A stretch of 47,685 nt of DNA, taken from the IMG/VR virus record IMGVR_UViG_2513237200_000007; one strand, 5' to 3'. This DNA comes from a virus (Duplodnaviria; Heunggongvirae; Uroviricota; Caudoviricetes). Made by a program: the position numbers and the translations under genes. Below the pieces are notes generated by a model that had not been told where the DNA came from, ran no database searches, and worked only from the letters and a program-made list of their open reading frames with translations. Shown here piece by piece: positions 18,229 through 42,865 of this stretch (positions are counted from its first letter, which is position 1; every line of letters begins with the position of its first letter).

Positions 18229-19557
18229 CTGAGAGATCCCCTCATAATTTCCCCAAAGCGTAACCATGTGTGAATAAATTTTGAGCTAGTAGGGTTGCAG
18301 CCACGAGTAAGTCTTCCCTTGTTATTGTGTAGCCAGAATGCCGCAAAACTTCCATGCCTAAGCGAACTGTTGAGAGTACGTTTCGATTTCTGACTGTGTT
18401 AGCCTGGAAGTGCTTGTCCCAACCTTGTTTCTGAGCATGAACGCCCGCAAGCCAACATGTTAGTTGAAGCATCAGGGCGATTAGCAGCATGATATCAAAA
18501 CGCTCTGAGCTGCTCGTTCGGCTATGGCGTAGGCCTAGTCCGTAGGCAGGACTTTTCAAGTCTCGGAAGGTTTCTTCAATCTGCATTCGCTTCGAATAGA
18601 TATTAACAAGTTGTTTGGGTGTTCGAATTTCAACAGGTAAGTTAGTTGCTAGAACCCATGGCTCCTTTGCCGACGCTGAGTAGATTTTAGGTGACGGGTG
18701 GTGACAATGAGTCCGTGTCGAGCGCTGATTTTTTCGGCCTTTAGAGCGAGATTTATACAATAGAATTTGGCATGAGATTGGATTGCTTTTAGTCAGCCTC
18801 TTATAGCCTAAAGTCTTTGAGTGACTAGATGACATATCATGTAAGTTGCTGATAGGTTTCCAGTTTTCCGCTCCTAGGTCTGCATATTGTACTTTTCCTC
18901 TTACTCGACTTAACCAGTACCAACCCAGCTTCTCAACGGATTTATACCATGGCACTTTAAAGCCAGCATCACTGACAATGAGCGGTGTGGTGTTACTCGG
19001 TAGAATGCTCGCAAGGTCGGCTAGAAATTGGTCATGAGCTTTCTTTGAACATTGCTCTGAAAGCGGGAACGCTTTCTCATAAAGAGTAACAGAACGACCG
19101 TGTAGTGCGACTGAAGCTCGCAATACCATAAGTCGTTTTTGCTCACGAATATCAGACCAGTCAACAAGTACAATGGGCATCGTATTGCCCGAACAGATAA
19201 AGCTAGCATGCCAACGGTATACAGCGAGTCGCTCTTTGTGGAGGTGACGATTACCTAACAATCGGTCGATTCGTTTGATGTTATGTTTTGTTCTCGCTTT
19301 GGTTGGCAGGTTACGGCCAAGTTCGGTAAGAGTGAGAGTTTTACAGTCAAGTAATGCGTGGCAAGCCAACGTTAAGCTGTTGAGTCGTTTTAAGTGTAAT
19401 TCGGGGCAGAATTGGTAAAGAGAGTCGTGTAAAATATCGAGTTCGCACATCTTGTTGTCTGATTATTGATTTTTCGCGAAACCATTTGATCATATGACAA
19501 GATGTGTATCCACCTTAACTTAATGATTTTTACCAAAATCATTAGGGGATTCATCAG
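18229..19557 (-). mobile_element. complete IS10 (1329 bp)
   Basis: Inside end CTGAGAGATCCCCTCATAATTTCCCC at 18229; outside end ...GGGGATTCATCAG ending at 19557; single 402-aa transposase; flanked by 9-bp direct repeat. Confidence 0.95.
18242..19450 (-). CDS. IS10 transposase
   Basis: 402 aa, MCELDILHDSLYQFCPELHLKRLNSLTLACHALLDCKTLTLTELGRNL..., recognised as the IS10/Tn10 transposase. Confidence 0.95.
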   Translation of the reverse strand: MCELDILHDSLYQFCPELHLKRLNSLTLACHALLDCKTLTLTELGRNLPTKARTKHNIKRIDRLLGNRHLHKERLAVYRWHASFICSGNTMPIVLVDWSDIREQKRLMVLRASVALHGRSVTLYEKAFPLSEQCSKKAHDQFLADLASILPSNTTPLIVSDAGFKVPWYKSVEKLGWYWLSRVRGKVQYADLGAENWKPISNLHDMSSSHSKTLGYKRLTKSNPISCQILLYKSRSKGRKNQRSTRTHCHHPSPKIYSASAKEPWVLATNLPVEIRTPKQLVNIYSKRMQIEETFRDLKSPAYGLGLRHSRTSSSERFDIMLLIALMLQLTCWLAGVHAQKQGWDKHFQANTVRNRNVLSTVRLGMEVLRHSGYTITREDLLVAATLLAQNLFTHGYALGKL

Positions 19558-19566
19558 TACTTTGTT
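19558..19566. repeat. 9-bp target-site duplication (right copy) of IS10
   Basis: TACTTTGTT, identical to 18220-18228. Confidence 0.8.
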
Positions 19567-19698
19567 GCAATGAGGGCAGATCAAAAGGGCACCTTTTTGT
19601 ACTCTTGAAAAACTGTGTTCTGACTCTTGGGTGCAGTTTGGGCAGGAACATTTAACGAGATAATTACGGCGTGATTTTGAGTTTTTACGTTCTGACAT
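19558..19698 (-). pseudogene. small zinc-ribbon ORF interrupted by IS10 (originally about 56 aa)
   Basis: From ATG 19696-19698: MSERKNSKSRRNYLVKCSCPNCTQESEHSFSRVQKGALLICPHCNKV, then reads into IS10. Joining across the element using the duplicated 9 bp restores ...CNKVFQTNLKAVA-stop (stop at 18190-18192). Confidence 0.5.
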
Positions 19699-19917
19699 AG
19701 GCTTTTCCTGTATAAATGGCCGTATACAGTACACTAAATATGAAAACATTTCTCGTATTATTATTTTATATATGACTTTCTTTCAAAATAATTACCCACA
19801 TTTTTAATGTGTATGTTTTTTTAGCGCCGTTGAGAACAACGTGTGCTGTCAAAACTACCCCGTAGACTCCGATCTTTTCAAACATATTGCACCATCCGTG
19901 TACATCGGGGTGAGGAT

Positions 19918-20445: not shown

Positions 20446-20449
<4 letters not shown>
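20138..20449 (+). CDS. ydfR: YdfR-like protein (DUF1327) between holin and endolysin
   Basis: 103-aa ORF, tightly packed in the lysis cassette; stop overlaps the endolysin start. Confidence 0.7.
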
Positions 20450-21473
<1,024 letters not shown>

Positions 21474-21835
21474 GGTAATATTAAATCGGAACATTTACAT
21501 CGCGGAATGTAAAATTTAAATAAAAAGGACTCTTCCATGAGCCAAAATTCCTGAAATCTTAAGGGTAAGATAAAAGGTCTTAATCAGAATGACACGTTTT
21601 ATTAATAAATAAAGCTATTCTTTCATTGCTGTGTTTTTCTTTACAAAAGTAATCCTTGCTATGGGTGGTTAATCATGCGTTAATGGTGTTCTGGTTTGTT
21701 ACAAATTTATCTGAAGCAGTCATTGTTATAATTTTATTATTTGTACCTCTTGAGATTTCCTTGTTGGTTTTTCTCTCTGATATTTTTTTTCGGACCATTC
21801 TGCCCAAGGGCTAATTTCTTCAAAAGGTAATAATT

Positions 21836-22048
21836 ATGTCTAACAAAATGACTGGTTTAGTGAAATGGTTTAACCCTGAAAAAGGTTTTGGTTTCATCAC
21901 GCCGAAAGATGGCAGCAAAGATGTGTTTGTCCATTTCTCAGCAATTCAGAGCAACGATTTCAAAACATTAACTGAGAATCAGGAAGTTGAATTTGGTATT
22001 GAGAACGGACCTAAAGGTCCTGCCGCTGTTCATGTAGTGGCGCTTTGA
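21836..22048 (+). CDS. cspI: cold-shock protein CspI-like
   Basis: 70 aa, [45 protein letters not shown]... Confidence 0.9.
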
Positions 22049-22136
22049 GGTAGACAATATTACAAACCATATTCACTTTAGATGCCCGTGTTGTCATGGT
22101 TCCCAGTATAGAACATCATCTTTTGATGTTTCTGAC

Positions 22137-22247
22137 ATGAATCCTTTCGGGGCAAAATGTATCTTTTGTAAATCAATGATGATTACATTTGATAATATTT
22201 CACAATACTTAAATGCCAGCCGTCTGTCGTTGGATTTAAAAAAGTGA
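22137..22247 (+). CDS. small Cys-rich ORF (YnfN-like position)
   Basis: 36 aa MNPFGAKCIFCKSMMITFDNISQYLNASRLSLDLKK; the same frame is open upstream (…CPCCHGSQYRTSSFDVSD) without an ATG, suggesting a CxxC…CxxC protein with non-canonical start or a lost start. Confidence 0.3.
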   Translation: MNPFGAKCIFCKSMMITFDNISQYLNASRLSLDLKK

Positions 22248-22319
22248 AAATGAAGGCTCCTTCGGGAGCTTTTTTGCTTGGTGTCTATTCGATGGATACT
22301 CACATACTACGGTAACATC

Positions 22320-22550
22320 ATGAAAAAAATCATAGTTTTTTTTAACTCTGAACCAGCAGTGGTAGTGCCAGCGATGACTGGAGTTAACACCATCATGCGT
22401 GAATATCCAAATGGCGAAAAAACACACCTTACTGTAATGGCCGCAGGGTTTCCATCTCTGACCGGAGATCATAAAGTCATTTATGTAGCCGCGGATCGAC
22501 ATGTTACTTCAGAAGAAATTCTGGAAGCAGCAATAAGGCTCTTGAGTTGA
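22320..22550 (+). CDS. hypothetical protein (76 aa)
   Basis: MKKIIVFFNSEPAVVVPAMTGVNTIMREYPNGEKTHLTVMAAGFPSLTGDHKVIYVAADRHVTSEEILEAAIRLLS; protein-like composition; weak SD. Confidence 0.35.
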   Translation: MKKIIVFFNSEPAVVVPAMTGVNTIMREYPNGEKTHLTVMAAGFPSLTGDHKVIYVAADRHVTSEEILEAAIRLLS

Positions 22551-22718
22551 TTTGATGCTATTGCATTGATAATTCAGGAAAATTCTCTTTGTCTGTTTGT
22601 GTAAAATTTAGACTATCGTATGTTGATTATTGCGATGTTTCATCTTATCTTTTACACGTTTGCACCATATAATCGACTTACTGTGTAACTGGAAAGTCAT
22701 AACAGACTAAAAGAGGAA

Positions 22719-22895
22719 ATGATGAATATTGAAAACTTAAAAACAAAAGCAGAAGCAGATATTTCTGAATATATAACAAAAAAAATTATTGAACTTAAGA
22801 AAAAGACCGGGAAAGAAGTTACCAGTATTCAGTTTACCGCACGGGAAAAAATGACGGGTCTTGAAAGCTATGATGTCAAGATTAATTTAATCTGA
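22719..22895 (+). CDS. gnsB: GnsB/GnsA-family small protein (58 aa; below ORF-track cutoff)
   Basis: Hand translation: MMNIENLKTKAEADISEYITKKIIELKKKTGKEVTSIQFTAREKMTGLESYDVKINLI; SD AAGAGGA 3-9 nt upstream; resembles GnsA/GnsB. Confidence 0.7.
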   Translation: MMNIENLKTKAEADISEYITKKIIELKKKTGKEVTSIQFTAREKMTGLESYDVKINLI

Positions 22896-23046
22896 TGTAT
22901 TCAATAATAAAATTTATCCATAAACCTCGTTTTTACGGGGTTTTGTTATATTTGAATGGTTCCGAATATCTAAATCACAATTGTTGATGGTTTTTATTAA
23001 ACCAATGCAGTCCGGCTCAGGAGTGAGAGAAGCCGGACGTTATGGT

Positions 23047-23457
23047 TTAGCGTGGTAAGATCTGTGTAGTTTTCTGGATGCTTTCAGTAAATAGTAATGA
23101 ATTATCAAAGGTATAGTAATATCTTTTTTGTTCGTGGATATTTGTAACCCACCGAAAAACTCCTGCTTTAGCAAGGTTTCTTCTGTATTCCTGAAATGTG
23201 ATCTCTCTGGATTTCAGCTTATTAGAGGTCGTTTCTATAAGATGCCTATCCTTTGAAAATTTGACAGACACAATGTTTTTTAGGCCCTTTAATAACACTG
23301 TATTATCATTTTTTAATACAATATGAACATTCTCTGTGGCTAAATAGTAAATGTAATGTGAGACATTGTGACGTTTTAGCTCAGAATAAAACCATTGATA
23401 GTTTAAATCGTTTCGAACTTTATCAAATATTTGTTTAAAAATGACTACCTGATCCAT
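23047..23457 (-). CDS. ydfO: YdfO-like protein (DUF1398)
   Basis: 136 aa from [31 protein letters not shown]... Confidence 0.75.
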
Positions 23458-23514
23458 AGATAAACCTTCCATGTGATATGAGGGGGCGTAGTCTGCACGA
23501 TTATCTAAATTGCT

Positions 23515-23748
23515 TCAATCTGGTCTGACCTGTTTTCTGAGCAATTCAGTGATGTCACTCTTTTCTTTGTTTGCTTCAGAAGAAACTCTTTTTTCTGAGC
23601 ACAGTCTCCGGCGGCAGGCTTCAATGACCCAGGCTGAGAAATTCCCGGACCCTTTTTGCTCAAGAGCGATGTTAATTTGTTCAATCATTTGGTTAGGAAA
23701 GCGGATGTTGCGGGTTGTTGTTCTGCGGGTTCTGTTCTTCGTTGACAT
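23515..23748 (-). CDS. ynfO: YnfO-like small protein, probable ribbon-helix-helix DNA-binding
   Basis: 77 aa, N-terminal basic region then RFPNQMIEQINIALEQKGSGNFSAWVIEACRRRL suggestive of an RHH fold. Confidence 0.6.
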   Translation of the reverse strand: MSTKNRTRRTTTRNIRFPNQMIEQINIALEQKGSGNFSAWVIEACRRRLCSEKRVSSEANKEKSDITELLRKQVRPD

Positions 23749-23947
23749 GAGGTTGCCCCGTATTCAGTGTCGCTGATTTGTATTGTCTGAAGTTGTTTTT
23801 ACGTTAAGTTGATGCAGATCAATTAATACGATACCTGCGTCATAATTGATTATTTGACGTGGTTTGATGGCCTCCACGCACGTTGTGATATGTAGATGAT
23901 AATCATTATCACTTTACGGGTCCTTTCCGGTGATCCGACAGGTTACG

Positions 23948-23959
23948 GGGCGGCGACCT
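23948..23959 (+). other. cos: cos cohesive-end site (cosN 12-nt overhang GGGCGGCGACCT); cosB lies to the right
   Basis: Sequence ...CCGACAGGTTACG|GGGCGGCGACCT|CGCGGGTTTTCGCTATTTATGAAAATTTTCCGGTTTAAGGC matches the lambda cos junction, directly upstream of nu1. Confidence 0.85.
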
Positions 23960-24136
23960 CGCGGGTTTTCGCTATTTATGAAAATTTTCCGGTTTAAGGC
24001 ATTTCCGTTCTTCTTCGTCGTAACTTAATGTTTTTATTTAAAATACCCCCTGAAAAGAAAGGAAACGACAGGTGCTGAAAACGAGCTTTTGGGCCTCTGT
24101 CGTTTCCTTTCTCTGTTTTTGGCCGTGGAATGAACA

Positions 24137-24656
24137 ATGGAAGTCAACAAAAAGCAGCTGGCTGACATTTTCGGTGCGAGTATCCGTACCATTCAGAACT
24201 GGCAGGAACAGGGAATGCCCGTTCTGCGAGGCGGTGGCAAGGGTAATGAGGTGCTTTATGACTCTGCCGCCGTTATAAGATGGTATGCCGAAAGGGATGC
24301 TGAAATTGAGAACGAAAAGCTGCGCCGGGAAGTTGAAGAACTGCGGCAGGCCAGCGAGACAGATCTCCAGCCAGGGACTATTGAGTACGAACGCCATCGA
24401 CTTACGCGTGCGCAGGCCGACGCACAGGAGCTGAAAAATGCCAGAGACTCCGCTGAAGTGGTGGAAACCGCATTCTGTACTTTCGTGCTGTCGCGGATCG
24501 CAGGTGAAATTGCCAGTATTCTCGACGGGATCCCCCTGTCGGTGCAGCGGCGTTTTCCGGAACTGGAAAACCGACATGTTGATTTCCTGAAACGGGATAT
24601 CATCAAAGCCATGAACAAAGCAGCCGCGCTGGATGAACTGATACCGGGGTTGCTGA

Positions 24657-24682
<26 letters not shown>
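24137..24682 (+). CDS. nu1: terminase small subunit Nu1
   Basis: 181 aa, MEVNKKQLADIFGASIRTIQNWQEQGMPVLRGGGKGNEVLYDSAAV..., near-identical to lambda Nu1 as recalled. Confidence 0.95.
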
Positions 24683-28363
<3,681 letters not shown>

Positions 28364-28383
<20 letters not shown>

Positions 28384-29683
28384 TCTCCCGCATATTGCCA
28401 GCATGGCTTTTAATGAGCCGCTGATGCTTGAACCCGCCTATGCGCGGGTTTTCTTTTGTGCGCTTGCAGGCCAGCTTGGGATCAGCCGCCTGACGGATGC
28501 GGTGTCCGGCGACAGCCTGACTGCCCAGGAGGCACTCGCGACGCTGGCATTATCCGGTGATGATGACGGACCACGACAGGCCCGCAGTTATCAGGTCATG
28601 AACGGCATCGCCGTGCTGCCGGTGTCCGGCACGCTGGTCAGCCGGACGCGGGCGCTGCAGCCGTACTCGGGGATGACCGGTTACAACGGCATTATCGCCC
28701 GTCTGCAACAGGCTGCCAGCGATCCGATGGTGGACGGCATTCTGCTCGATATGGACACGCCCGGCGGGATGGTGGCGGGGGCATTTGACTGCGCTGACAT
28801 CATCGCCCGTGTGCGTGACATAAAACCGGTATGGGCGCTGGCCAACGACATGAACTGCAGTGCAGGTCAGCTGCTTGCCAGTGCCGCCTCCCGGCGTCTG
28901 GTCACGCAGACCGCCCGGACAGGCTCCATCGGCGTCATGATGGCTCACAGTAATTACGGTGCTGCGCTGGAGAAACAGGGTGTGGAAATCACGCTGATTT
29001 ACAGCGGCAGCCATAAGGTGGATGGCAACCCCTACAGCCATCTTCCGGATGACGTCCGGGAGACACTGCAGTCCCGGATGGACGCAACCCGCCAGATGTT
29101 TGCGCAGAAGGTGTCGGCATATACCGGCCTGTCCGTGCAGGCTGTGCTGGATACCGAGGCTGCAGTGTACAGCGGTCAGGAGGCCATTGATGCCGGACTG
29201 GCTGATGAACTTGTTAACAGCACCGATGCGATCACCGTCATGCGTGATGCACTGGATGCACGTAAATCCCGTCTCTCAGGAGGGCGAATGACCAAAGAGA
29301 CTCAATCAACAACTGTTTCAGCCACTGCTTCGCAGGCTGACGTTACTGACGTGGTGCCAGCGACGGAGGGCGAAAACGCCAGCGCGGCGCAGCCGGACGT
29401 GAACGCGCAGATCACCGCAGCGGTTGCGGCAGAAAACAGCCGCATTATGGGGATCCTCAACTGTGAGGAGGCTCACGGACGCGAAGAACAGGCACGCGTG
29501 CTGGCAGAAACCCCCGGTATGACCGTGGAAACGGCCCGCCGCATTCTGGCCGCAGCACCACAGAGTGCACAGGCGCGCAGTGACACTGCGCTGGATCGTC
29601 TGATGCAGGGGGCACCGGCACCGCTGGCTGCAGGTAACCCGGCATCTGATGCCGTTAACGATTTGCTGAACACACCAGTGTAA
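28364..29683 (+). CDS. C: head maturation protease/scaffold C (GTG start)
   Basis: 439 aa from GTG 28364 (VTAELRNLPHIASMAF...), SD GAGGAGGAG upstream; overlaps B 3' end; track ORF starts earlier at a non-physiological upstream codon. Confidence 0.9.
29078..29683 (+). CDS. nu3: scaffold protein Nu3 (in-frame internal start within C)
   Basis: ATG at 29078 in the C frame (MDATRQMFAQKVSAYTG...), as for lambda Nu3 sharing the C stop. Confidence 0.7.
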   Translation: MDATRQMFAQKVSAYTGLSVQAVLDTEAAVYSGQEAIDAGLADELVNSTDAITVMRDALDARKSRLSGGRMTKETQSTTVSATASQADVTDVVPATEGENASAAQPDVNAQITAAVAAENSRIMGILNCEEAHGREEQARVLAETPGMTVETARRILAAAPQSAQARSDTALDRLMQGAPAPLAAGNPASDAVNDLLNTPV

Positions 29684-29692
29684 GGGATGTTT

Positions 29693-30025
29693 ATGACGAG
29701 CAAAGAAACCTTTACCCATTACCAGCCGCTGGGCAACAGTGACCCGGCTCATACCGCAACCGCGCCCGGCGGATTGAGTGCGAAAGCGCCTGCAATGACC
29801 CCGCTGATGCTGGACACCTCCAGCCGTAAGCTGGTTGCGTGGGATGGCACCACCGACGGTGCTGCCGTTGGCATTCTTGCGGTTGCTGCTGACCAGACCA
29901 GCACCACGCTGACGTTCTACAAGTCCGGCACGTTCCGTTATGAGGATGTGCTCTGGCCGGAGGCTGCCAGCGACGAGACGAAAAAACGGACCGCGTTTGC
30001 CGGAACGGCAATCAGCATCGTTTAA
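29693..30025 (+). CDS. D: head decoration protein D
   Basis: 110 aa from [41 protein letters not shown]... Confidence 0.95.
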
Positions 30026-30046
30026 CTTTACCCTTCATCACTAAAG

Positions 30047-30067
30047 GCCGCCTGTGCGGCTTTTTTT
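30047..30067 (+). terminator. hairpin plus T-run between D and E (attenuator-like)
   Basis: GCCGC-CTGT-GCGGC followed by TTTTTTT, just upstream of the E start. Confidence 0.4.
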
Positions 30068-30080
30068 ACGGGATTTTTTT

Positions 30081-31106
30081 ATGTCGATGTACACAACCGC
30101 CCAACTGCTGGCGGCAAATGAGCAGAAATTTAAGTTTGATCCGCTGTTTCTGCGTCTCTTTTTCCGTGAGAGCTATCCCTTCACCACGGAGAAAGTCTAT
30201 CTCTCACAAATTCCGGGACTGGTAAACATGGCGCTGTACGTTTCGCCGATTGTTTCCGGTGAGGTTATCCGTTCCCGTGGCGGCTCCACCTCTGAATTTA
30301 CGCCGGGATATGTCAAGCCGAAGCATGAAGTGAATCCGCAGATGACCCTGCGTCGCCTGCCGGATGAAGATCCGCAGAATCTGGCGGACCCGGCTTACCG
30401 CCGCCGTCGCATCATCATGCAGAACATGCGTGACGAAGAGCTGGCCATTGCTCAGGTCGAAGAGATGCAGGCAGTTTCTGCCGTGCTTAAGGGCAAATAC
30501 ACCATGACCGGTGAAGCCTTCGATCCGGTTGAGGTGGATATGGGCCGCAGTGAGGAGAATAACATCACGCAGTCCGGCGGCACGGAGTGGAGCAAGCGTG
30601 ACAAGTCCACGTATGACCCGACCGACGATATCGAAGCCTACGCGCTGAACGCCAGCGGTGTGGTGAATATCATCGTGTTCGATCCGAAAGGCTGGGCGCT
30701 GTTCCGTTCCTTCAAAGCCGTCAAGGAGAAGCTGGATACCCGTCGTGGCTCTAATTCCGAGCTGGAGACAGCGGTGAAAGACCTGGGCAAAGCGGTGTCC
30801 TATAAGGGGATGTATGGCGATGTGGCCATCGTCGTGTATTCCGGACAGTACGTGGAAAACGGCGTCAAAAAGAACTTCCTGCCGGACAACACGATGGTGC
30901 TGGGGAACACTCAGGCACGCGGTCTGCGCACCTATGGCTGCATTCAGGATGCGGACGCACAGCGCGAAGGCATTAACGCCTCTGCCCGTTACCCGAAAAA
31001 CTGGGTGACCACCGGCGATCCGGCGCGTGAGTTCACCATGATTCAGTCAGCACCGCTGATGCTGCTGGCTGACCCTGATGAGTTCGTGTCCGTACAACTG
31101 GCGTAA
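30081..31106 (+). CDS. E: major capsid protein E
   Basis: 341 aa from MSMYTTAQLLAANEQKFKFDPLFLRLFFRESYPF... Confidence 0.95.
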   Translation: MSMYTTAQLLAANEQKFKFDPLFLRLFFRESYPFTTEKVYLSQIPGLVNMALYVSPIVSGEVIRSRGGSTSEFTPGYVKPKHEVNPQMTLRRLPDEDPQNLADPAYRRRRIIMQNMRDEELAIAQVEEMQAVSAVLKGKYTMTGEAFDPVEVDMGRSEENNITQSGGTEWSKRDKSTYDPTDDIEAYALNASGVVNIIVFDPKGWALFRSFKAVKEKLDTRRGSNSELETAVKDLGKAVSYKGMYGDVAIVVYSGQYVENGVKKNFLPDNTMVLGNTQARGLRTYGCIQDADAQREGINASARYPKNWVTTGDPAREFTMIQSAPLMLLADPDEFVSVQLA

Positions 31107-31147
31107 TCATGGCCCTTCGGGGCCATTGTTTCTCTGTGGAGGAGTCC

Positions 31148-31546
31148 ATGACGAAAGATGAACTGATTGCCCGTCTCCGCTCGCTGGGTGAACAACTGAA
31201 CCGTAATGTCAGCCTGACGGGGACGAAAGAAGAACTGGCGCTCCGTGTGGCAGAGCTGGAAGAGGAGCTTGATGACACGGATGAAACTGCCGGTCAGGAC
31301 ACCCCTCTCAGCCGGGAAAATGTGCTGACCGGACATGAAAATGAGGTGGGATCAGCGCAGCCGGATACCGTGATTCTGGATACGTCTGAACTGGTCACGG
31401 TCGTGGCACTGGTGAAGCTGCATACTGATGCACTTCACGCCACGCGGGATGAACCTGTGGCATTTGTGCTGCCGGGAACGGCGTTTCGTGTCTCTGCCGG
31501 TGTGGCAGCCGAAATGACAGAGCGCGGCCTGGCCAGAATGCAATAA
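31148..31546 (+). CDS. FI: DNA packaging protein FI
   Basis: 132 aa from MTKDELIARLRSLGEQLNRNVSLTGTKEELALRVAELEEEL... Confidence 0.9.
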   Translation: MTKDELIARLRSLGEQLNRNVSLTGTKEELALRVAELEEELDDTDETAGQDTPLSRENVLTGHENEVGSAQPDTVILDTSELVTVVALVKLHTDALHATRDEPVAFVLPGTAFRVSAGVAAEMTERGLARMQ

Positions 31547-31557
31547 CGGGAGGCGCT

Positions 31558-31911
31558 GTGGCTGATTTCGATAACCTGTTCGATGCTGCCATTGCCCGCG
31601 CCGATGAAACGATACGCGGGTACATGGGAACGTCAGCCACCATGACATCCGGTGAGCAGTCAGGTGCGGTGATACGTGGTGTTTTTGATGACCCTGAAAA
31701 TATCAGCTATGCCGGACAGGGCGTGCGCGTTGAAGGCTCCAGCCCGTCCCTGTTTGTCCGGACTGATGAGGTGCGGCAGCTGCGGCGTGGAGACACGCTG
31801 ACCATCGGTGAGGAAAATTTCTGGGTAGATCGGGTTTCGCCGGATGATGGCGGAAGTTGTCATCTCTGGCTTGGACGGGGCGTACCGCCTGCCGTTAACC
31901 GTCGCCGCTGA
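31558..31911 (+). CDS. FII: head completion protein FII (GTG start)
   Basis: 117 aa, (M)ADFDNLFDAAIARADETIRGYMGTSATMTSGEQSG... Confidence 0.9.
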   Translation: MADFDNLFDAAIARADETIRGYMGTSATMTSGEQSGAVIRGVFDDPENISYAGQGVRVEGSSPSLFVRTDEVRQLRRGDTLTIGEENFWVDRVSPDDGGSCHLWLGRGVPPAVNRRR

Positions 31912-31922
31912 AAGGGGGATGT

Positions 31923-32501
31923 ATGGCCATAAAAGGTCTTGAGCAGGCCGTTGAAAACCTCAGCCGTATCAGCAGAACGGCGGTGCCTGGTGCCGCCGCA
32001 ATGGCCATTAACCGCGTTGCTTCATCCGCGATATCGCAGTCGGCGTCACAAGTTGCCCGTGAGACAAAGGTACGCCGGAAACTGGTAAAGGAAAGGGCCA
32101 GGCTGAAAAGGGCCACTGTCAAAAATCCGCAGGCCAGAATCAAAGTTAACCGGGGGGATTTGCCCGTAATCAAGCTGGGTAATGCGCGGGTTGTCCTTTC
32201 GCGCCGCAGGCGTCGTAAAAAGGGGCAGCGTTCATCCCTGAAAGGTGGCGGCAGCGTGCTTGTGGTGGGTAACCGTCGTATTCCCGGCGCGTTTATTCAG
32301 CAACTGAAAAATGGCCGGTGGCATGTCATGCAGCGTGTGGCCGGGAAAAACCGTTACCCCATTGATGTGGTGAAAATCCCGATGGCGGTGCCGCTGACCA
32401 CGGCGTTTAAACAAAATATTGAGCGGATACGGCGTGAACGTCTTCCGAAAGAGCTGGGCTATGCGCTGCAGCATCAACTGAGGATGGTAATAAAGCGATG
32501 A
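31923..32501 (+). CDS. Z: tail completion protein Z
   Basis: 192 aa lambda gpZ-like. Confidence 0.9.
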   Translation: MAIKGLEQAVENLSRISRTAVPGAAAMAINRVASSAISQSASQVARETKVRRKLVKERARLKRATVKNPQARIKVNRGDLPVIKLGNARVVLSRRRRRKKGQRSSLKGGGSVLVVGNRRIPGAFIQQLKNGRWHVMQRVAGKNRYPIDVVKIPMAVPLTTAFKQNIERIRRERLPKELGYALQHQLRMVIKR

Positions 32502-32893
32502 AACATACTGAACTCCGTGCAGCCGTACTGGATGCACTGGAGAAGCATGACACCGGGGCGACGTTTTTTGATGGTCGCCCCGCTGTTTTTGATGAGGCGG
32601 ATTTTCCGGCAGTTGCCGTTTATCTCACCGGCGCTGAATACACGGGCGAAGAGCTGGACAGCGATACCTGGCAGGCGGAGCTGCATATCGAAGTTTTCCT
32701 GCCTGCTCAGGTGCCGGATTCAGAGCTGGATGCGTGGATGGAGTCCCGGATTTATCCGGTGATGAGCGATATCCCGGCACTGTCAGATTTGATCACCAGT
32801 ATGGTGGCCAGCGGCTATGACTACCGGCGCGACGATGATGCGGGCCTGTGGAGTTCAGCCGATCTGACTTATGTCATTACCTATGAAATGTGA
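32498..32893 (+). CDS. U: tail terminator protein U
   Basis: 131 aa lambda gpU-like; overlaps Z stop. Confidence 0.9.
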
Positions 32894-32900
32894 GGACGCT

Positions 32901-33641
32901 ATGCCTGTACCAAATCCTACAATGCCGGTGAAAGGTGCCGGGACCACCCTGTGGGTTTATAAGGGGAGCGGTGACCCTTATGCGAATCCGCTTTCAGACG
33001 TTGACTGGTCGCGTCTGGCAAAAGTTAAAGACCTGACGCCCGGCGAACTGACCGCTGAGTCCTATGACGACAGCTATCTCGATGATGAAGATGCAGACTG
33101 GACTGCGACCGGGCAGGGGCAGAAATCTGCCGGAGATACCAGCTTCACGCTGGCGTGGATGCCCGGAGAGCAGGGGCAGCAGGCGCTGCTGGCGTGGTTT
33201 AATGAAGGCGATACCCGTGCCTATAAAATCCGCTTCCCGAACGGCACGGTCGATGTGTTCCGTGGCTGGGTCAGCAGTATCGGTAAGGCGGTGACGGCGA
33301 AGGAAGTGATCACCCGCACGGTGAAAGTCACCAATGTGGGACGTCCGTCGATGGCAGAAGATCGCAGCACGGTAACAGCGGCAACCGGCATGACCGTGAC
33401 GCCTGCCAGCACCTCGGTGGTGAAAGGGCAGAGCACCACGCTGACCGTGGCCTTCCAGCCGGAGGGCGTAACCGACAAGAGCTTTCGTGCGGTGTCTGCG
33501 GATAAAACAAAAGCCACCGTGTCGGTCAGTGGTATGACCATCACCGTGAACGGCGTTGCTGCAGGCAAGGTCAACATTCCGGTTGTATCCGGTAATGGTG
33601 AGTTTGCTGCGGTTGCAGAAATTACCGTCACCGCCAGTTAA
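32901..33641 (+). CDS. V: major tail tube protein V
   Basis: 246 aa from [30 protein letters not shown]...; C-terminal Ig-like domain. Confidence 0.95.
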
Positions 33642-33656
33642 TCCGGAGAGTCAGCG

Positions 33657-34079
33657 ATGTTCCTGAAAACCGAATCATTTGAACATAACGGTGTGACCGT
33701 CACGCTTTCTGAACTGTCAGCCCTGCAGCGCATTGAGCATCTCGCCCTGATGAAACGGCAGGCAGAACAGGCGGAGTCAGACAGCAACCGGAAGTTTACT
33801 GTGGAAGACGCCATCAGAACCGGCGCGTTTCTGGTGGCGATGTCCCTGTGGCATAACCATCCGCAGAAGACGCAGATGCCGTCCATGAATGAAGCCGTTA
33901 AACAGATTGAGCAGGAAGTGCTTACCACCTGGCCCACGGAGGCAATTTCTCATGCTGAAAACGTGGTGTACCGGCTGTCTGGTATGTATGAGTTTGTGGT
34001 GAATGATGCCCCTGAACAGGCAGAGGACGCCGGGCCTGCAGAGCCTGTTTCTGCGGGAAAGTGTTCGACGGTGAGCTGA
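33657..34079 (+). CDS. G: tail assembly chaperone G
   Basis: 140 aa, MFLKTESFEHNGVTVTLSELSALQRIEHLALMKRQ... Confidence 0.9.
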   Translation: MFLKTESFEHNGVTVTLSELSALQRIEHLALMKRQAEQAESDSNRKFTVEDAIRTGAFLVAMSLWHNHPQKTQMPSMNEAVKQIEQEVLTTWPTEAISHAENVVYRLSGMYEFVVNDAPEQAEDAGPAEPVSAGKCSTVS

Positions 34080-34495
34080 GTTTTGCCCTGAAACTGGCGC
34101 GCGAGATGGGGCGACCCGACTGGCGTGCCATGCTTGCCGGGATGTCATCCACGGAGTATGCCGACTGGCACCGCTTTTACAGTACCCATTATTTTCATGA
34201 TGTTCTGCTGGATATGCACTTTTCCGGGCTGACGTACACCGTGCTCAGCCTGTTTTTCAGCGATCCGGATATGCATCCGCTGGATTTCAGTCTGCTGAAC
34301 CGGCGCGAGGCTGACGAAGAGCCTGAAGATGATGTGCTGATGCAGAAAGCGGCAGGGCTTGCCGGAGGCGTTCGTTTTGGCCCGGACGGGAATGAAGTTA
34401 TCCCCGCTTCCCCGGATGTGGCGGACATGACGGAGGATGACGTAATGCTGATGACAGTATCAGAAGGGATCGCAGGAGGAGTCCGGTATGGCTGA
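33657..34495 (+). CDS. T: tail assembly chaperone G-T fusion via programmed -1 frameshift
   Basis: Slippery heptamer GGGAAAG at 34055-34061 near the end of G; the -1 frame (track ORF 34061-34495) continues to just after the H start. Confidence 0.75.
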
Positions 34496-37049
34496 ACCGG
34501 TAGGCGATCTGGTCGTTGATTTAAGTCTGGATGCGGCCAGATTTGACGAGCAGATGGCCAGAGTCAGGCGTCATTTTTCCGGTACGGAAACTGATGCGAA
34601 AAAAACAGCGGCAGTCGTTGAACAGTCGCTGAGCCGACAGGCGCTGGCTGCACAGAAAGCGGGGATTTCCGTCGGGCAGTATAAAGCCGCCATGCGTATG
34701 CTGCCTGCACAGTTCACCGACGTGGCCACGCAGCTTGCAGGCGGGCAAAGTCCGTGGCTGATCCTGCTGCAACAGGGTGGTCAGGTTAAGGACTCCTTCG
34801 GCGGGATGATCCCCATGTTCAGGGGGCTTGCCGGTGCGATCACCCTGCCGATGGTGGGGGCCACCTCGCTGGCGGTGGCGACCGGTGCGCTGGCGTATGC
34901 CTGGTATCAGGGCAACTCAACCCTGTCCGATTTCAACAAAACGCTGGTCCTTTCCGGCAATCAGGCGGGACTGACGGCAGATCGTATTCTGGCCCTGTCC
35001 AGAGCCGGGCAGGCGGCAGGGCTGACGTTTAACCAGACCAGCGAGTCACTCAGCGCACTGGTTAAGGCGGGGGTAAGCGGTGAGGCTCAGATTGCGTCCA
35101 TCAGCCAGAGTGTGGCGCGTTTCTCCTCTGCATCCGGCGTGGAGGTGGACAAGGTCGCTGAAGCCTTCGGGAAGCTGACCACAGACCCGACGTCGGGGCT
35201 GACGGCGATGGCACGCCAGTTCCATAACGTGACGGCGGAGCAGATTGCGTATGTTGCTCAGTTGCAGCGTTCCGGCGATGAAGCCGGGGCATTGCAGGCG
35301 GCGAACGAGGCCGCAACGAAAGGGTTTGATGACCAGACCCGCCGCCTGAAAGAGAACATGGGCACGCTGGAGACCTGGGCAGACAGGACAGCACGGGCAT
35401 TCAAATCCATGTGGGATGCGGTGCTGGATATTGGTCGTCCTGATACCGCGCAGGAGATGCTGATTAAGGCAGAGGCTGCGTTTAAGAAAGCAGACGACAT
35501 CTGGAATCTGCGCAAGGATGATTATTTTGTTAACGATGAAGCGCGGGCGCGTTACTGGGATGATCGTGAAAAGGCCCGTCTTGCGCTTGAAGCCGCCCGA
35601 AAGAAGGCTGAGCAGCAGACTCAACAGGACAAAAATGCGCAGCAGCAGAGCGATACCGAAGCGTCACGGCTGAAATATACCGAAGAGGCGCAGAAGGCTT
35701 ACGAACGGCTGCAGACGCCGCTGGAGAAATATACCGCCCGTCAGGAAGAACTGAACAAGGCACTGAAAGACGGGAAAATCCTGCAGGCGGATTACAACAC
35801 GCTGATGGCGGCGGCGAAAAAGGATTATGAAGCGACGCTGAAAAAGCCGAAACAGTCCGGCGTGAAGGTGTCTGCGGGCGATCGTCAGGAAGACAGTGCT
35901 CATGCTGCCCTGCTGACGCTTCAGGCAGAACTCCGGACGCTGGAGAAGCATGCCGGAGCAAATGAGAAAATCAGCCAGCAGCGCCGGGATTTGTGGAAGG
36001 CGGAGAGTCAGTTCGCGGTACTGGAGGAGGCGGCGCAACGTCGCCAGCTGTCTGCACAGGAGAAATCCCTGCTGGCGCATAAAGATGAGACGCTGGAGTA
36101 CAAACGCCAGCTGGCTGCACTTGGCGACAAGGTTACGTATCAGGAGCGCCTGAACGCGCTGGCGCAGCAGGCGGATAAATTCGCACAGCAGCAACGGGCA
36201 AAACGGGCCGCCATTGATGCGAAAAGCCGGGGGCTGACTGACCGGCAGGCAGAACGGGAAGCCACGGAACAGCGCCTGAAGGAACAGTATGGCGATAATC
36301 CGCTGGCGCTGAATAACGTCATGTCAGAGCAGAAAAAGACCTGGGCGGCTGAAGACCAGCTTCGCGGGAACTGGATGGCAGGCCTGAAGTCCGGCTGGAG
36401 TGAGTGGGAAGAGAGCGCCACGGACAGTATGTCGCAGGTAAAAAGTGCAGCCACGCAGACCTTTGATGGTATTGCACAGAATATGGCGGCGATGCTGACC
36501 GGCAGTGAGCAGAACTGGCGCAGCTTCACCCGTTCCGTGCTGTCCATGATGACAGAAATTCTGCTTAAGCAGGCAATGGTGGGGATTGTCGGGAGTATCG
36601 GCAGCGCCATTGGCGGGGCTGTTGGTGGCGGCGCATCCGCGTCAGGCGGTACAGCCATTCAGGCCGCTGCGGCGAAATTCCATTTTGCAACCGGAGGATT
36701 TACGGGAACCGGCGGCAAATATGAGCCAGCGGGGATTGTTCACCGTGGTGAGTTTGTCTTCACGAAGGAGGCAACCAGCCGGATTGGCGTGGGGAATCTT
36801 TACCGGCTGATGCGCGGCTATGCCACCGGCGGTTATGTCGGTACACCGGGCAGCATGGCAGACAGCCGGTCGCAGGCGTCCGGGACGTTTGAGCAGAATA
36901 ACCATGTGGTGATTAACAACGACGGCACGAACGGGCAGATAGGTCCGGCTGCTCTGAAGGCGGTGTATGACATGGCCCGCAAGGGTGCCCGTGATGAAAT
37001 TCAGACACAGATGCGTGATGGTGGCCTGTTCTCCGGAGGTGGACGATGA
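34488..37049 (+). CDS. H: tail tape-measure protein H
   Basis: 853 aa lambda gpH-like; extended coiled-coil region. Confidence 0.95.
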   Translation: MAEPVGDLVVDLSLDAARFDEQMARVRRHFSGTETDAKKTAAVVEQSLSRQALAAQKAGISVGQYKAAMRMLPAQFTDVATQLAGGQSPWLILLQQGGQVKDSFGGMIPMFRGLAGAITLPMVGATSLAVATGALAYAWYQGNSTLSDFNKTLVLSGNQAGLTADRILALSRAGQAAGLTFNQTSESLSALVKAGVSGEAQIASISQSVARFSSASGVEVDKVAEAFGKLTTDPTSGLTAMARQFHNVTAEQIAYVAQLQRSGDEAGALQAANEAATKGFDDQTRRLKENMGTLETWADRTARAFKSMWDAVLDIGRPDTAQEMLIKAEAAFKKADDIWNLRKDDYFVNDEARARYWDDREKARLALEAARKKAEQQTQQDKNAQQQSDTEASRLKYTEEAQKAYERLQTPLEKYTARQEELNKALKDGKILQADYNTLMAAAKKDYEATLKKPKQSGVKVSAGDRQEDSAHAALLTLQAELRTLEKHAGANEKISQQRRDLWKAESQFAVLEEAAQRRQLSAQEKSLLAHKDETLEYKRQLAALGDKVTYQERLNALAQQADKFAQQQRAKRAAIDAKSRGLTDRQAEREATEQRLKEQYGDNPLALNNVMSEQKKTWAAEDQLRGNWMAGLKSGWSEWEESATDSMSQVKSAATQTFDGIAQNMAAMLTGSEQNWRSFTRSVLSMMTEILLKQAMVGIVGSIGSAIGGAVGGGASASGGTAIQAAAAKFHFATGGFTGTGGKYEPAGIVHRGEFVFTKEATSRIGVGNLYRLMRGYATGGYVGTPGSMADSRSQASGTFEQNNHVVINNDGTNGQIGPAALKAVYDMARKGARDEIQTQMRDGGLFSGGGR

Positions 37050-37375
37050 AGACCTTCCGCTGGAAAGTGAAACCCGGTATGGATGTGGCTTCGATCCCTT
37101 CTGTAAGAAAGGTGCGCTTTGGTGATGGCTATTCTCAGCGAGCGCCTGCCGGGCTGAATGCCAACCTGAAAACGTACAGCGTGACGCTTTCTGTCCCCCG
37201 TGAGGAGGCCACGGTACTGGAGTCGTTTCTGGAAGAGCACGGGGGCTGGAAATCCTTTCTGTGGACGCCGCCTTATGAGTGGCGGCAGATAAAGGTGACC
37301 TGCGCAAAATGGTCGTCGCGGGTCAGTATGCTGCGTGTTGAGTTCAGCGCAGAGTTTGAACAGGTGGTGAACTGA
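37046..37375 (+). CDS. M: tail tip protein M
   Basis: 109 aa; ATGA overlap with H. Confidence 0.9.
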   Translation: MKTFRWKVKPGMDVASIPSVRKVRFGDGYSQRAPAGLNANLKTYSVTLSVPREEATVLESFLEEHGGWKSFLWTPPYEWRQIKVTCAKWSSRVSMLRVEFSAEFEQVVN

Positions 37376-38073
37376 TGCAGGATATCCGGCAGGAAACACT
37401 GAATGAATGCACCCGTGCGGAGCAGTCGGCCAGCGTGGTGCTCTGGGAAATCGACCTGACAGAGGTCGGTGGAGAACGTTATTTTTTCTGTAATGAGCAG
37501 AACGAAAAAGGTGAGCCGGTCACCTGGCAGGGGCGACAGTATCAGCCGTATCCCATTCAGGGGAGTGGTTTTGAACTGAATGGCAAAGGCACCAGTACGC
37601 GCCCCACACTGACGGTTTCTAACCTGTACGGTATGGTCACCGGGATGGCGGAAGATCTGCAGAGTCTGGTCGGTGGAACGGTGGTCCGGCGTAAGGTTTA
37701 CGCCCGTTTTCTGGATGCGGTGAACTTCGTCAACGGAAACAGTGGCGCCGATCCGGAGCAGGAGGTGATCAGCCGCTGGCGCATTGAGCAGTGCAGCGAA
37801 CTGAGCGCGGTGAGTGCCTCTTTTGTACTGTCCACGCCGACGGAAACGGACGGTGCTGTTTTTCCGGGACGTATCATGCTGGCCAACACCTGCACCTGGA
37901 CCTATCGCGGTGATGAGTGCGGTTATCACGGTCCGGCAGTCGCGGATGAATATGACCAGCCAACGTCCGATATCACGAAGGATAAATGCAGCAAATGCCT
38001 GAGCGGTTGTAAGTTCCGCAATAACGTCGGCAACTTTGGCGGCTTCCTTTCCATTAACAAACTTTCGCAGTAA
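37375..38073 (+). CDS. L: tail tip protein L
   Basis: 232 aa lambda gpL-like with C-terminal Cys cluster. Confidence 0.9.
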   Translation: MQDIRQETLNECTRAEQSASVVLWEIDLTEVGGERYFFCNEQNEKGEPVTWQGRQYQPYPIQGSGFELNGKGTSTRPTLTVSNLYGMVTGMAEDLQSLVGGTVVRRKVYARFLDAVNFVNGNSGADPEQEVISRWRIEQCSELSAVSASFVLSTPTETDGAVFPGRIMLANTCTWTYRGDECGYHGPAVADEYDQPTSDITKDKCSKCLSGCKFRNNVGNFGGFLSINKLSQ

Positions 38074-38078
38074 ATCCC

Positions 38079-38822
38079 ATGACACAGACAGAATCAGCGA
38101 TTCTGGCGCACGCCCGGCGATGTGCGCCAGCGGAGTCGTGCGGCTTCGTGGTAAGCACGCCGGAGGGGGAAAGATATTTTCCCGGCGTGAATATTTCCGG
38201 TGAGCCGGAGGATTATTTCCGGATGGCTCCGGAGGACTGGCTGCAGGCAGAAATGCAGGGTGAGATTGTGGCGCTGGTCCACAGCCACCCCGGTGGTCTG
38301 CCCTGGCTGAGTGAGGCTGACCGGCGGCTGCAGGTGCAGAGTGATTTGCCGTGGTGGCTGGTCTGCCGGGGGGCGATTCATAAGTTCCGCTGTGTGCCGC
38401 ATCTCACCGGGCGGCGCTTTGAGCACGGGGTGACGGACTGTTACACGCTGTTCCGGGATGCTTATCATCTGGCGGGGATTGAGATGCCGGATTTTCATCG
38501 CGGGGATGACTGGTGGCGTCACGGTCAGAATCTCTATCTGGATAATCTGGAGGCCACAGGGCTGTATCAGGTGCCGTTGTCAGCGGCGCAGCCGGGCGAT
38601 GTGCTGCTGTGCTGTTTTGGTTCATCGGTGCCGAATCATGCCGCCATTTACTGTGGTGATGGCGAGCTGCTGCACCATATTCCTGAACAACTGAGCAAAC
38701 GAGAGAGGTACACCGACAAATGGCAGCGACGCACACACTCCCTCTGGCGTCACCGGGCATGGCGCGCATCTGCCTTTACGGGGATTTACAACGATTTGGT
38801 CGCCGCATCGACCTTCGTGTGA
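38079..38822 (+). CDS. K: tail tip assembly protein K (JAB/MPN and NlpC/P60-like motifs)
   Basis: 247-aa ORF; HSHPGG JAMM-like motif and downstream Cys/His peptidase-like region; 3' end overlaps I. The true start could be internal. Confidence 0.85.
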   Translation: MTQTESAILAHARRCAPAESCGFVVSTPEGERYFPGVNISGEPEDYFRMAPEDWLQAEMQGEIVALVHSHPGGLPWLSEADRRLQVQSDLPWWLVCRGAIHKFRCVPHLTGRRFEHGVTDCYTLFRDAYHLAGIEMPDFHRGDDWWRHGQNLYLDNLEATGLYQVPLSAAQPGDVLLCCFGSSVPNHAAIYCGDGELLHHIPEQLSKRERYTDKWQRRTHSLWRHRAWRASAFTGIYNDLVAASTFV

Positions 38823-39391
38823 AAACGGGGGCTGAAGCCATCCGGGCACTGGCCACACAGCTCCCGGCGTTTCGTCAGAAACTGAGCGACGGCTGGTATC
38901 AGGTACGGATTGCCGGGCGGGACGTCAGCACGTCCGGGTTAACGGCGCAGTTACATGAGACTCTGCCTGATGGCGCTGTGATTCATATTGTTCCCAGAGT
39001 CGCCGGGGCCAAGTCAGGTGGCGTATTCCAGATTGTCCTGGGGGCTGCCGCCATTGCCGGATCATTCTTTACCGCCGGAGCCACCCTTGCAGCATGGGGG
39101 GCAGCCATTGGGGCCGGTGGTATGACCGGCATCCTGTTTTCTCTCGGTGCCAGTATGGTGCTCGGTGGTGTGGCGCAGATGCTGGCACCGAAAGCCAGAA
39201 CTCCCCGTACACAGACAACGGATAACGGTAAGCAGAACACCTATTTCTCCTCACTGGATAACATGGTTGCCCAGGGCAATGTTCTGCCTGTTCTGTACGG
39301 GGAAATGCGCGTGGGGTCACGCGTGGTTTCTCAGGAGATCAGCACGGCAGACGAAGGGGACGGTGGTCAGGTTGTGGTGATTGGTCGCTGA
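38720..39391 (+). CDS. I: tail tip assembly protein I
   Basis: 223 aa with ubiquitin-like N-terminus and Gly/Ala-rich hydrophobic C-terminal region; lambda gpI-like. Confidence 0.9.
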   Translation: MAATHTLPLASPGMARICLYGDLQRFGRRIDLRVKTGAEAIRALATQLPAFRQKLSDGWYQVRIAGRDVSTSGLTAQLHETLPDGAVIHIVPRVAGAKSGGVFQIVLGAAAIAGSFFTAGATLAAWGAAIGAGGMTGILFSLGASMVLGGVAQMLAPKARTPRTQTTDNGKQNTYFSSLDNMVAQGNVLPVLYGEMRVGSRVVSQEISTADEGDGGQVVVIGR

Positions 39392-39410
39392 TGCAAAATG
39401 TTTTATGTGA

Positions 39411-39431
39411 AACCGCCTGCGGGCGGTTTTG
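39411..39431 (+). terminator. hairpin plus T-run between I and J
   Basis: AACCGCC-TGCG-GGCGGTT followed by TT. Confidence 0.4.
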
Positions 39432-39451
39432 TCATTTATGGAGCGTGAGGA

Positions 39452-42400: not shown

Positions 42401-42865
42401 ATTAAGGGCATGCTGGAGGCGACTCAGGTCAGAGGTGACTTCGTTAAAGCTGTATCCAAATCATTTCCGAAACAGGCTGGTACGTGGGGTAACACGGAAA
42501 CACCAAACGGGACGGTTACAGTCACCATCAGCGATGATCATAACTTTGACCGTCAAATCATTATTCCGCCCATTATCTTTAACGGAATAGCGTATAGCGA
42601 TCCGGGAAGTGGTAATAACCCGGGAGGTACAAGATACACGGGTTATGGTTTTGAAGTTCGCAAAAACGGTGTATTAATCGCATCCAGAGAAACTAAAGGG
42701 GCCATTCCCGGTAGCTACAGTGCGGTTATTGATATGCCGAGTGGCAGGGGAAGCGTCACTCTGGAGTTTAAGGTTTTCCATAAAGGCAATCAGCGGGCAG
42801 GTAATATCACCGACTGTACGGTGATTGTGACCAAAAAAGCGGCTTCAGGCATCAGTATTCGTTGA
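39452..42865 (+). CDS. J: central tail fibre / host specificity protein J with divergent C-terminal receptor-binding domain
   Basis: 1137 aa; most of the protein is lambda gpJ-like (fibronectin-III-like repeats), but the last roughly 150 aa differ from lambda J as recalled. Confidence 0.95.

Follow-up and report, generated by a model that had tools for sequence, protein, structure and literature searches.

A likely cold-shock cargo block upstream of cos in a Qin-like prophage and the near-cognate start codon predicted for its gene ynfQ

We analysed a 47,685-nt stretch of viral DNA (Caudoviricetes; IMG/VR record IMGVR_UViG_2513237200_000007; hereafter, the window), with a focus on the small open reading frames (ORFs) at 22049-22900, between the cold-shock gene cspI and the genes next to cos. 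The region is very probably the known cold-shock cargo, or 'moron', block of Qin/mEp460-type lambdoid prophages, which comprises cspI-ynfQ-(ynfR/terminator)-ynfN followed by gnsB. Its four small ORFs correspond to the annotated genes ynfQ, ynfR, ynfN, and gnsB. RefSeq names every ORF of the block, cspI included, and in the cryptic prophage Qin of Escherichia coli K-12 MG1655 the genes carry the locus tags b1552 (cspI), b4724 (ynfQ), b4749 (ynfR), b1551 (ynfN), and b1550 (gnsB). The most likely function is that of a cold-induced operon in which YnfQ output is coupled to that of CspI at a low ratio, together with a separately promoted modulator of membrane lipids, GnsB. Given that all genes of the block are already known and annotated, with entries in RefSeq and the K-12 gene list, the locus has little discovery value, and the use of the analysis is mainly for annotation.

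The identification rests first on direct comparison with Qin. Window positions 21600-23100 were 99.93% identical to the K-12 prophage, with a single 1-nt indel, and CspI, YnfQ, YnfR, and GnsB were identical to their K-12 counterparts. Gene order, spacing, and sequence are alike along the whole series cspI-ynfQ-ynfR-ynfN-gnsB-ydfO-ynfO-nohA. Of 5,426 complete E. coli genomes searched by megablast with 21700-23100, 2,153 contained the segment; at least 80% of it was present in 2,092 E. coli records, and 1,509 records matched it at 99% identity or more. The block has a guanine-plus-cytosine (GC) content of 35.6%, compared with 47.2% in the lysis genes and 57.1% in the terminase-to-tail module (24137-42865), which agrees with a first-pass annotation, made from the sequence alone, that had described the stretch as richer in AT than the GC-rich morphogenetic module. 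All of the elements listed in that annotation were found where it had placed them, and ynfR and two terminators, one between ynfQ and ynfN and one after gnsB, are present in addition. Its description of the small ORFs as uncharacterised was only partly true: all four are named and annotated, cold induction has been reported for YnfR and ynfQ, and GnsB has published overexpression phenotypes. Two minus-strand ORFs overlapping the block, 22094-22303 (69 aa) and 22236-22502 (88 aa), are not open in orthologous loci and were rejected as spurious.

The first-pass annotation had also noted a Cys-rich 36-aa ORF whose frame is open upstream without an ATG, and had suspected a longer protein with a different start. 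The 36-aa ATG ORF (22137-22247) turned out to be the C-terminal part of the 62-aa YnfQ. Its frame is indeed open upstream, to 22038, through ...FRCPCCHG... with no in-frame ATG, and the longer protein is already in the annotation, starting from an ATT at 22059 that is the RefSeq start of the coding sequence in K-12 (b4724) and in other genomes. This ATT lies 7 nt downstream of a Shine-Dalgarno sequence, GAGGT (22047-22051), whose first G is the penultimate base of the cspI TGA. Comparative evidence places the start of ynfQ at ATT 22059, with the Shine-Dalgarno sequence overlapping the cspI stop. Because this start is ATT, YnfQ escapes standard gene callers.

The full 62-aa protein is recognised as a family. 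It matched the Pfam model PF23641 (YmcF-like) at 109.9 bits against a cutoff of 27, with residues 1-62 on positions 1-62 of the 62-position profile. In a tblastn scan that used one genome per species and yielded 80 loci in Enterobacteriaceae, the match spanned YnfQ residues 1-62 in most loci. For the 26 codons upstream of the internal ATG, nonsynonymous divergence (dN) was 0.03-0.16 with synonymous divergence (dS) saturated, which indicates strong purifying selection on this segment. Across genera, dN/dS values of about 0.1-0.2 place both the ynfQ and the ynfN frames far beyond chance, and selection appears to extend over the full annotated length of both genes. Among 26 family members, C9, C12, and C37 do not vary, with C11 and C34 conserved in at least 90%; all five are present in the window protein, where C9-x2-C12 ... 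C34-x2-C37 would form a putative zinc site. YnfQ is a probable four-Cys zinc-ribbon protein, and our best guess is that it binds nucleic acid or the ribosome alongside Csp proteins. PDB sequence searches returned nothing for YnfQ or YnfN, and no PHROG family was found for the long form of ynfQ. A relationship to YnfU, the other small zinc-binding protein of the prophage, was considered and rejected, as the two share no similarity; likewise, NCBIfam ECs_2282_CxxC was not significant as a family for YnfQ (17.8 bits, cutoff 37). In the literature, ynfQ has been described as 'cold shock induced' (PMC11228462), and a published transcriptome study groups it with csp genes. The name itself has been used for two genes. 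In Table 1 of PMC6001520 (VanOrsdel 2018), 'ynfQ' is a 37-aa ORF between ydfJ and ydfK that is identical to YnaM, while the current b4724 ynfQ is the 62-aa gene after cspI. The first entry in a later list of uncharacterised Qin genes is ynfT, with a coordinate (1632890) identical to that of the 37-aa ORF, which may therefore now be ynfT.

The start codon varies across the family. At the position aligned with 22059, ATT was observed in 58 of the 80 loci, ATG in 18, and ATC in 4. Of the 62 copies with ATT or ATC, 49 lie directly behind csp, with the csp stop lying over the Shine-Dalgarno sequence; Escherichia, Shigella, Citrobacter, Salmonella, Kosakonia, and Scandinavium are among the genera in this set. 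Meanwhile, 17 of the 18 ATG copies, from Klebsiella, Raoultella, Silvania, and Leclercia, are not adjacent to csp, and the eighteenth, from C. sedlakii, is joined in frame to csp. Copies of the Pseudescherichia type mostly retain ATT in the absence of csp, and there an 8-codon upstream ORF (uORF), MKKG[YH]YYY, overlaps the ATT. The uORF was seen in seven loci of Pseudescherichia and relatives, at locus positions of about 2482-2508, and could be a leader for reinitiation. In Atlantibacter, the start reads ATT ATG. This pattern of start codons and csp adjacency is consistent with weak-codon initiation that depends on upstream translation, and the association of a near-cognate start with translational coupling to csp is mildly new.

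Two further observations were made in these loci. Seven Klebsiella or Raoultella loci have, in place of csp, a short Cys-rich ORF (...CPCGSECC...) just upstream of locus position 2501, which ends at or overlaps the ATG-started ymcF homologue and may be an unannotated conserved small gene. In addition, enterobacterial csp-ymcF/ynfQ loci, with up to 100% protein identity, occur on three contigs assigned to Veillonella parvula, Mucilaginibacter, and Chryseobacterium; these assemblies are probably contaminated or mis-binned.

The gene in front of ynfQ is a typical cold-shock gene. CspI matched the Pfam CSD domain (E 1.6e-31) and scored 138 bits to the CspG equivalog, as expected of a canonical protein of the CspA/CspG type. 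Its 5' untranslated region (5'UTR) lies within a match to the cspA thermoregulator (Rfam RF01766; 112.8 bits against a gathering threshold of 78, E 2.8e-29), in which model positions 1-428 correspond to window positions 21690-22075. An Rfam scan of 20500-24500 with E values up to 1 found nothing besides this element. The cspA-type 5'UTR would drive the first part of the block and implies that cspI has its own promoter; a promoter scan listed none above its threshold for cspI or gnsB.

Between ynfQ and ynfN lies an intrinsic terminator whose hairpin has a minimum free energy (MFE) of -14.9 kcal/mol (z -2.8); the terminator scan lists this hairpin, 22252-22275, on the minus strand. Although the sequence has turned over, a hairpin and U tract recur at this position in Escherichia, Citrobacter, Klebsiella, and Raoultella, and one pair has changed from UA to CG in a compensatory way. 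The small ORF (sORF) ynfR begins 2 nt after the ynfQ stop and runs through the hairpin. Its peptide is not conserved outside E. coli, with a 12-aa truncation in an E. coli variant and the ATG missing in most Citrobacter loci. Because the peptide is not conserved, we read ynfR as translation over the terminator, not as a functional peptide; it looks like a by-product or a regulatory sORF. A conserved terminator overlapped by ynfR is mildly new, and ribosome- or Csp-sensitive read-through into ynfN is plausible. Csp proteins reportedly act as antiterminators (Bae et al. 2000). YnfR-SPA was strongly increased after cold shock (PMC6001520), and RNA-seq found cspI, ynfQ, and ynfN co-induced 6.5-, 5.9-, and 5.8-fold, with parallel dependence on LexA and SspA (PMC11228462).

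Downstream of the terminator, the 76-aa hypothetical protein of the first-pass annotation was recovered as YnfN, from the ATG at 22320 to 22550, where the program-made ORF list gives a 90-aa frame extended to a TTG. PHROG 3425 covers residues 1-76 of 76 (E 7e-54), and orthologues in Citrobacter, Klebsiella, Raoultella, Scandinavium, Yokenella, and Trabulsiella align from residue 1. The dN/dS of ynfN was 0.10-0.20, and its N-terminal 25 codons behave as the rest. The sole difference from Qin over 21600-23100 falls inside this gene: the window has a run of eight T (22336-22343, plus strand), and K-12 has seven. The K-12 YnfN is 51 aa long because this one-base loss frameshifts the 76-aa frame, and the C-terminal 51 aa of the window protein are identical to it. 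Most genomes and phages carry the 76-aa form. The alignments thus identify the K-12 protein as a frameshift remnant of a conserved 76-aa protein, which is a mildly new recognition. Conservation in related prophages had been proposed as the check on both the Cys-rich and the 76-aa frames, and both were found to be conserved well beyond Qin-like prophages. The AlphaFold2 model of YnfN is a five-strand sheet with a C-terminal helix (predicted local distance difference test, pLDDT, 88; predicted template modelling score, pTM, 0.75). YnfN matched no Pfam, NCBIfam, or PADLOC family.

A chromosomal counterpart of the block exists in E. coli outside the prophage, cspG-ymcF-ymcE-gnsA. It likewise has a csp gene, a 10-nt gap with the Shine-Dalgarno sequence over the csp stop, a 62-aa YmcF-family gene starting at ATT, and a Gns-family gene in last place. 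YnfQ and YmcF are 66% identical. The two loci differ in that ymcE, which encodes a hydrophobic 76-aa protein unrelated to YnfN, stands in place of the ynfR/terminator/ynfN segment. Furthermore, there is overlap among ymcF, ymcE, and gnsA, and the start codon of gnsA is GTG.

The last gene of the block, gnsB, matched Pfam PF08178 at 120.3 bits (cutoff 27) and aligned over residues 1-56 with the solved GnsA structures PDB 4xo1/4xo2 (E 5e-20). The first-pass annotation had listed a GnsB-like 58-aa protein with a strong Shine-Dalgarno sequence; the family and the ribosome-binding site stand, and the protein is 57 aa from a second ATG at 22722. This start is preferred because it lies 5 nt from the Shine-Dalgarno GAGG (22713-22716, within AAGAGG), with the first ATG (22719) only 2 nt away, and because Citrobacter orthologues have only the second ATG. 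An alignment of the 171-nt ynfN-gnsB spacer between Escherichia and Citrobacter contains one well-conserved block, in which TTGATT and TATCTT, separated by 17 nt, form a plausible candidate for a promoter of gnsB itself. A TATAAT at 22668-22673 in the same spacer is found in E. coli only. Past gnsB, a 9-bp stem with a U-rich tail forms an intrinsic terminator, which the terminator scan also detected (22922-22943 or, as in Table 1, 22922-22950; MFE -11.5 kcal/mol, z -2.2). Facing it is a minus-strand hairpin downstream of ydfO (22990-23050; -21.9 kcal/mol, z -7.1), which is probably the ydfO terminator. Overexpression of gnsA or gnsB rescued cold-sensitive lipid mutants (bioRxiv 2024.03.27.586906). 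The accompanying rise in unsaturated fatty acids is attributed to Sugai 2001, as cited in bioRxiv 2024.03.27.586906, which measured it directly for gnsA.

The GnsB family raises the question of a toxin-antitoxin (TA) system, in which GnsB would be the toxin and YnfN the antitoxin, as YmcE is said to be for GnsA, and the pair would stabilise the prophage as an addiction module. We consider this improbable. PF08178 is titled 'GnsA/GnsB toxin', the Prokaryotic Genome Annotation Pipeline (PGAP) calls gnsB 'addiction module toxin', and ymcE-gnsA is among the listed type II TA pairs (PMC8484670). YnfN lies upstream of gnsB and has the same 76-aa length as YmcE, but the two proteins have no detectable similarity, and there is no YmcE homologue at the window locus. 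The distance between ynfN and gnsB, with its conserved promoter-like block, also differs from the overlap of ymcE and gnsA. Nor are the two genes inherited together: there are Trabulsiella, Yokenella, Scandinavium, Raoultella, and Klebsiella loci with ynfN but no gnsB, and one locus with gnsB but no ynfN. Overexpression of gnsB increased persister counts and lowered ATP (bioRxiv 310961); however, the gene could be cloned and overexpressed alone, with beneficial effects (bioRxiv 2024.03.27.586906). No PADLOC model matched YnfQ, YnfR, YnfN, or GnsB. With genes that neither overlap nor are co-inherited, no YmcE homologue, and a YnfN unrelated to YmcE, the label of type II TA module was rejected for the locus.

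The reading of the region as cold-shock cargo is supported by its position in the prophage. The block follows the lysis genes and precedes cos by about 1 kb, with ydfO and ynfO, convergent AT-rich cargo genes downstream of gnsB, lying between it and cos. The cos site is marked by an exact match to the 12-mer GGGCGGCGACCT, which we take to be the lambda cos end. Nu1 and then gpA follow (both Pfam matches), and then the morphogenesis module. The window prophage differs from Qin in having an integrase, a complete lambda-like terminase-to-tail module, and the cos sequence; its ynfN is intact (76 aa, T8), and the K-12 copy is the 51-aa remnant (T7). The full block was found in only seven phage records, at 91.6-100% identity: PhiR42_1, Tritos, PhiR63_1, 2H10 (two records), HannyBb, and mEp460_ev081. 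The Nu1 gene of the window was found in 89, lambda among them. The block is a variable insertion in the lysis-cos interval. This bears out the first-pass suggestion of a moron-like accessory locus beside the packaging genes, as the block has its own composition, its own regulatory signals (the cspA-type 5'UTR and two terminators), a lysis-cos slot, and a presence in 7 versus 89 phage records. Lambda-type Rz-cos morons are similar in slot (lysis genes, cargo, cos, Nu1), in deviant composition, in having their own terminators, and in their patchy occurrence among phages that share the flanks. In lambda, bor is a moron between Rz and cos and encodes a serum-resistance lipoprotein, whereas the cargo of the window is a cold-shock and lipid module. 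In Citrobacter loci, csp-ymcF-ynfN-gnsB strings occur, with no YdfO or YnfO match within the fetched flanks.

Exclusion functions are common among morons located in the lysis-cos interval, so the block could also be imagined as anti-phage defence or superinfection-exclusion cargo, with a cold-shock-domain protein and small partners as sensor and effector. This seemed to us even less credible than the TA module. CspI matched the PADLOC cold-shock-domain model CSD_V (E 3e-15), and its score against the retron Se72 effector model was 50 bits, below the cutoff of 82. However, CspI is of the canonical type and carries the cspA thermoregulator, the same gene order is found at the non-prophage cspG locus and beside csp genes in many genera, and YnfQ, YnfR, YnfN, and GnsB lack PADLOC matches. 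The last alternative, that the Cys-rich frame is only the 36-aa ATG ORF, or noncoding, with an accidental CPCC stretch upstream, draws on the absence of in-frame ATG, GTG, or TTG from 22038-22136, on gene callers with canonical starts missing the long form, and on the lack of a PHROG, but it has next to no probability and is effectively refuted by the conservation data, namely the matches and Pfam model over residues 1-62, the low dN and invariant C9 and C12 of the first 26 codons, and the 18 loci with ATG exactly in the ATT column.

The features of the region are collected in Table 1. Further upstream, on the minus strand (18242-19749), an ORF for a 402-aa DDE transposase (18242-19450) lies directly against the 3' end of ynfU (zinc-binding, PF23499). 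The ynfU frame runs past the K-12 stop, giving a 119-aa ORF (19390-19749). An insertion sequence has probably replaced the YnfU C-terminus.

Table 1. Features of the cargo block and its surroundings, in window coordinates
Feature	Position	Strand	Description
Lysozyme	20446-20979		Lysis cassette
Rz-like DUF2514 protein	20976-21473		Lysis cassette
cspI promoter-proximal 5'UTR	21690-21835	+	Part of the cspA-type thermoregulator RNA match (21690-22075)
cspI	21836-22048	+	70-aa cold-shock protein; RefSeq, Pfam CSD
ynfQ	22059-22247	+	62 aa, predicted ATT start, 'cold shock small protein YmcF' family; RefSeq
ynfR	22250-22315	+	21-aa sORF; RefSeq b4749
Intrinsic terminator	22252-22275	+	Stem GAAGGCUCC / GGAGCUUUU, UUCG loop, U6 tract; starts 5 nt after the ynfQ stop
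ynfN	22320-22550	+	76 aa; RefSeq WP_000720962.1
Candidate gnsB promoter	22623-22651	+	TTGATT, 17 nt, TATCTT; conserved spacer block
gnsB	22722-22895	+	57 aa; RefSeq, Pfam PF08178
gnsB intrinsic terminator	22922-22950	+	9-bp stem, then U-rich tail
ydfO	23047-23457	-	DUF1398; RefSeq, Pfam
ynfO	23515-23748	-	DUF3950; RefSeq, Pfam
Lambda-type cohesive-end sequence	23948-23959	+	GGGCGGCGACCT, exact match; 178 nt upstream of nohA/Nu1
nohA (Nu1)	24137-24682	+	RefSeq; Nu1 Pfam match

If the block works as proposed, its expression could proceed as follows. In the cold, the cspA-type 5'UTR would stabilise and open the cspI mRNA. Ribosomes that finish cspI, or that are recruited at the overlapping Shine-Dalgarno sequence, would initiate at the weak AUU, and the amount of YnfQ would be a low, constant proportion of that of CspI. 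This output would respond to initiation factor 3 (IF3), with discrimination against AUU weaker at low temperature. The terminator just past the ynfQ stop would restrict transcription into ynfN; ribosomes positioned at the ynfQ stop and within ynfR, as well as antitermination by the Csp family, would promote read-through, so that ynfN would be co-induced in the cold. Finally, gnsB would be expressed from its own weak promoter, and GnsB would raise unsaturated fatty acids, suiting membranes at low temperature.

Published work offers some support for the initiation step. AUU is 4- to 8-fold weaker than AUG and functions in a coupled context (PMC3592434), and the authors of PMC5499595 relate the efficient translation of infC in the cold to weaker discrimination by IF3 against AUU at low temperature. 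The classical AUU genes, infC, which encodes IF3 at the thrS-infC junction, and pcnB, have their weak AUU just past an upstream stop, beside GG(U) (UAA GGU AUU in infC; PMC3592434), where it limits expression and makes it responsive to IF3. Unlike infC, ynfQ has a 10-nt rather than a 3-nt spacing and no evident autoregulatory logic, so the likeness would be one of functional analogy and not of homology, with the ynfQ start supported by comparison between genomes.

Several results weigh against the proposed scheme. The evolutionary transitions behind the association of start codon and csp adjacency are few, perhaps two or three independent ones. Full-text literature searches and the TetRP paper provided no primary evidence for the AUU start at 22059 in vivo. 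In vitro, AUU mRNAs competed worse in the cold (PMC5499595), and cold de-repression through IF3 is for that reason not a given. A hairpin that would sequester the Shine-Dalgarno sequence at the cspI/ynfQ junction has a z of -3.0 in the window, -1.6 at cspG/ymcF, and -0.5 in Citrobacter, where it is thus unsupported, and it was not used. The terminator is absent from the Scandinavium, Yokenella, and Trabulsiella loci that retain ynfN, and the module can therefore not depend on attenuation. The candidate gnsB promoter is below the scan threshold. As for the proteins, the YnfQ structure model is moderate (pLDDT 73) and has no significant structural neighbour, with zinc-ribbon proteins such as eL43 and TFIIE-alpha as the best non-significant matches, and YnfN has no PDB or BFVD structural neighbour with E <0.01.

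With these points in mind, we put forward a broader idea only tentatively, as one that may well prove wrong. The near-cognate AUU or AUC of the YmcF/YnfQ family could be a conserved device for reinitiation from the preceding csp, or from the Pseudescherichia uORF, gated by IF3 fidelity, that ties the zinc-ribbon protein to Csp translation and to temperature. Lineages uncoupled from csp would then have been forced to AUG. Together with the ribosome-sensitive terminator overlapped by ynfR, the block would form a phage-borne, translation-sensing cold-shock circuit. If the idea of coupling and AUU initiation is true, the family would be a natural and phylogenetically supported addition to the very few bacterial genes known to be initiated at AUU, and it would tie the choice of start codon to operon architecture in the cold-shock response.

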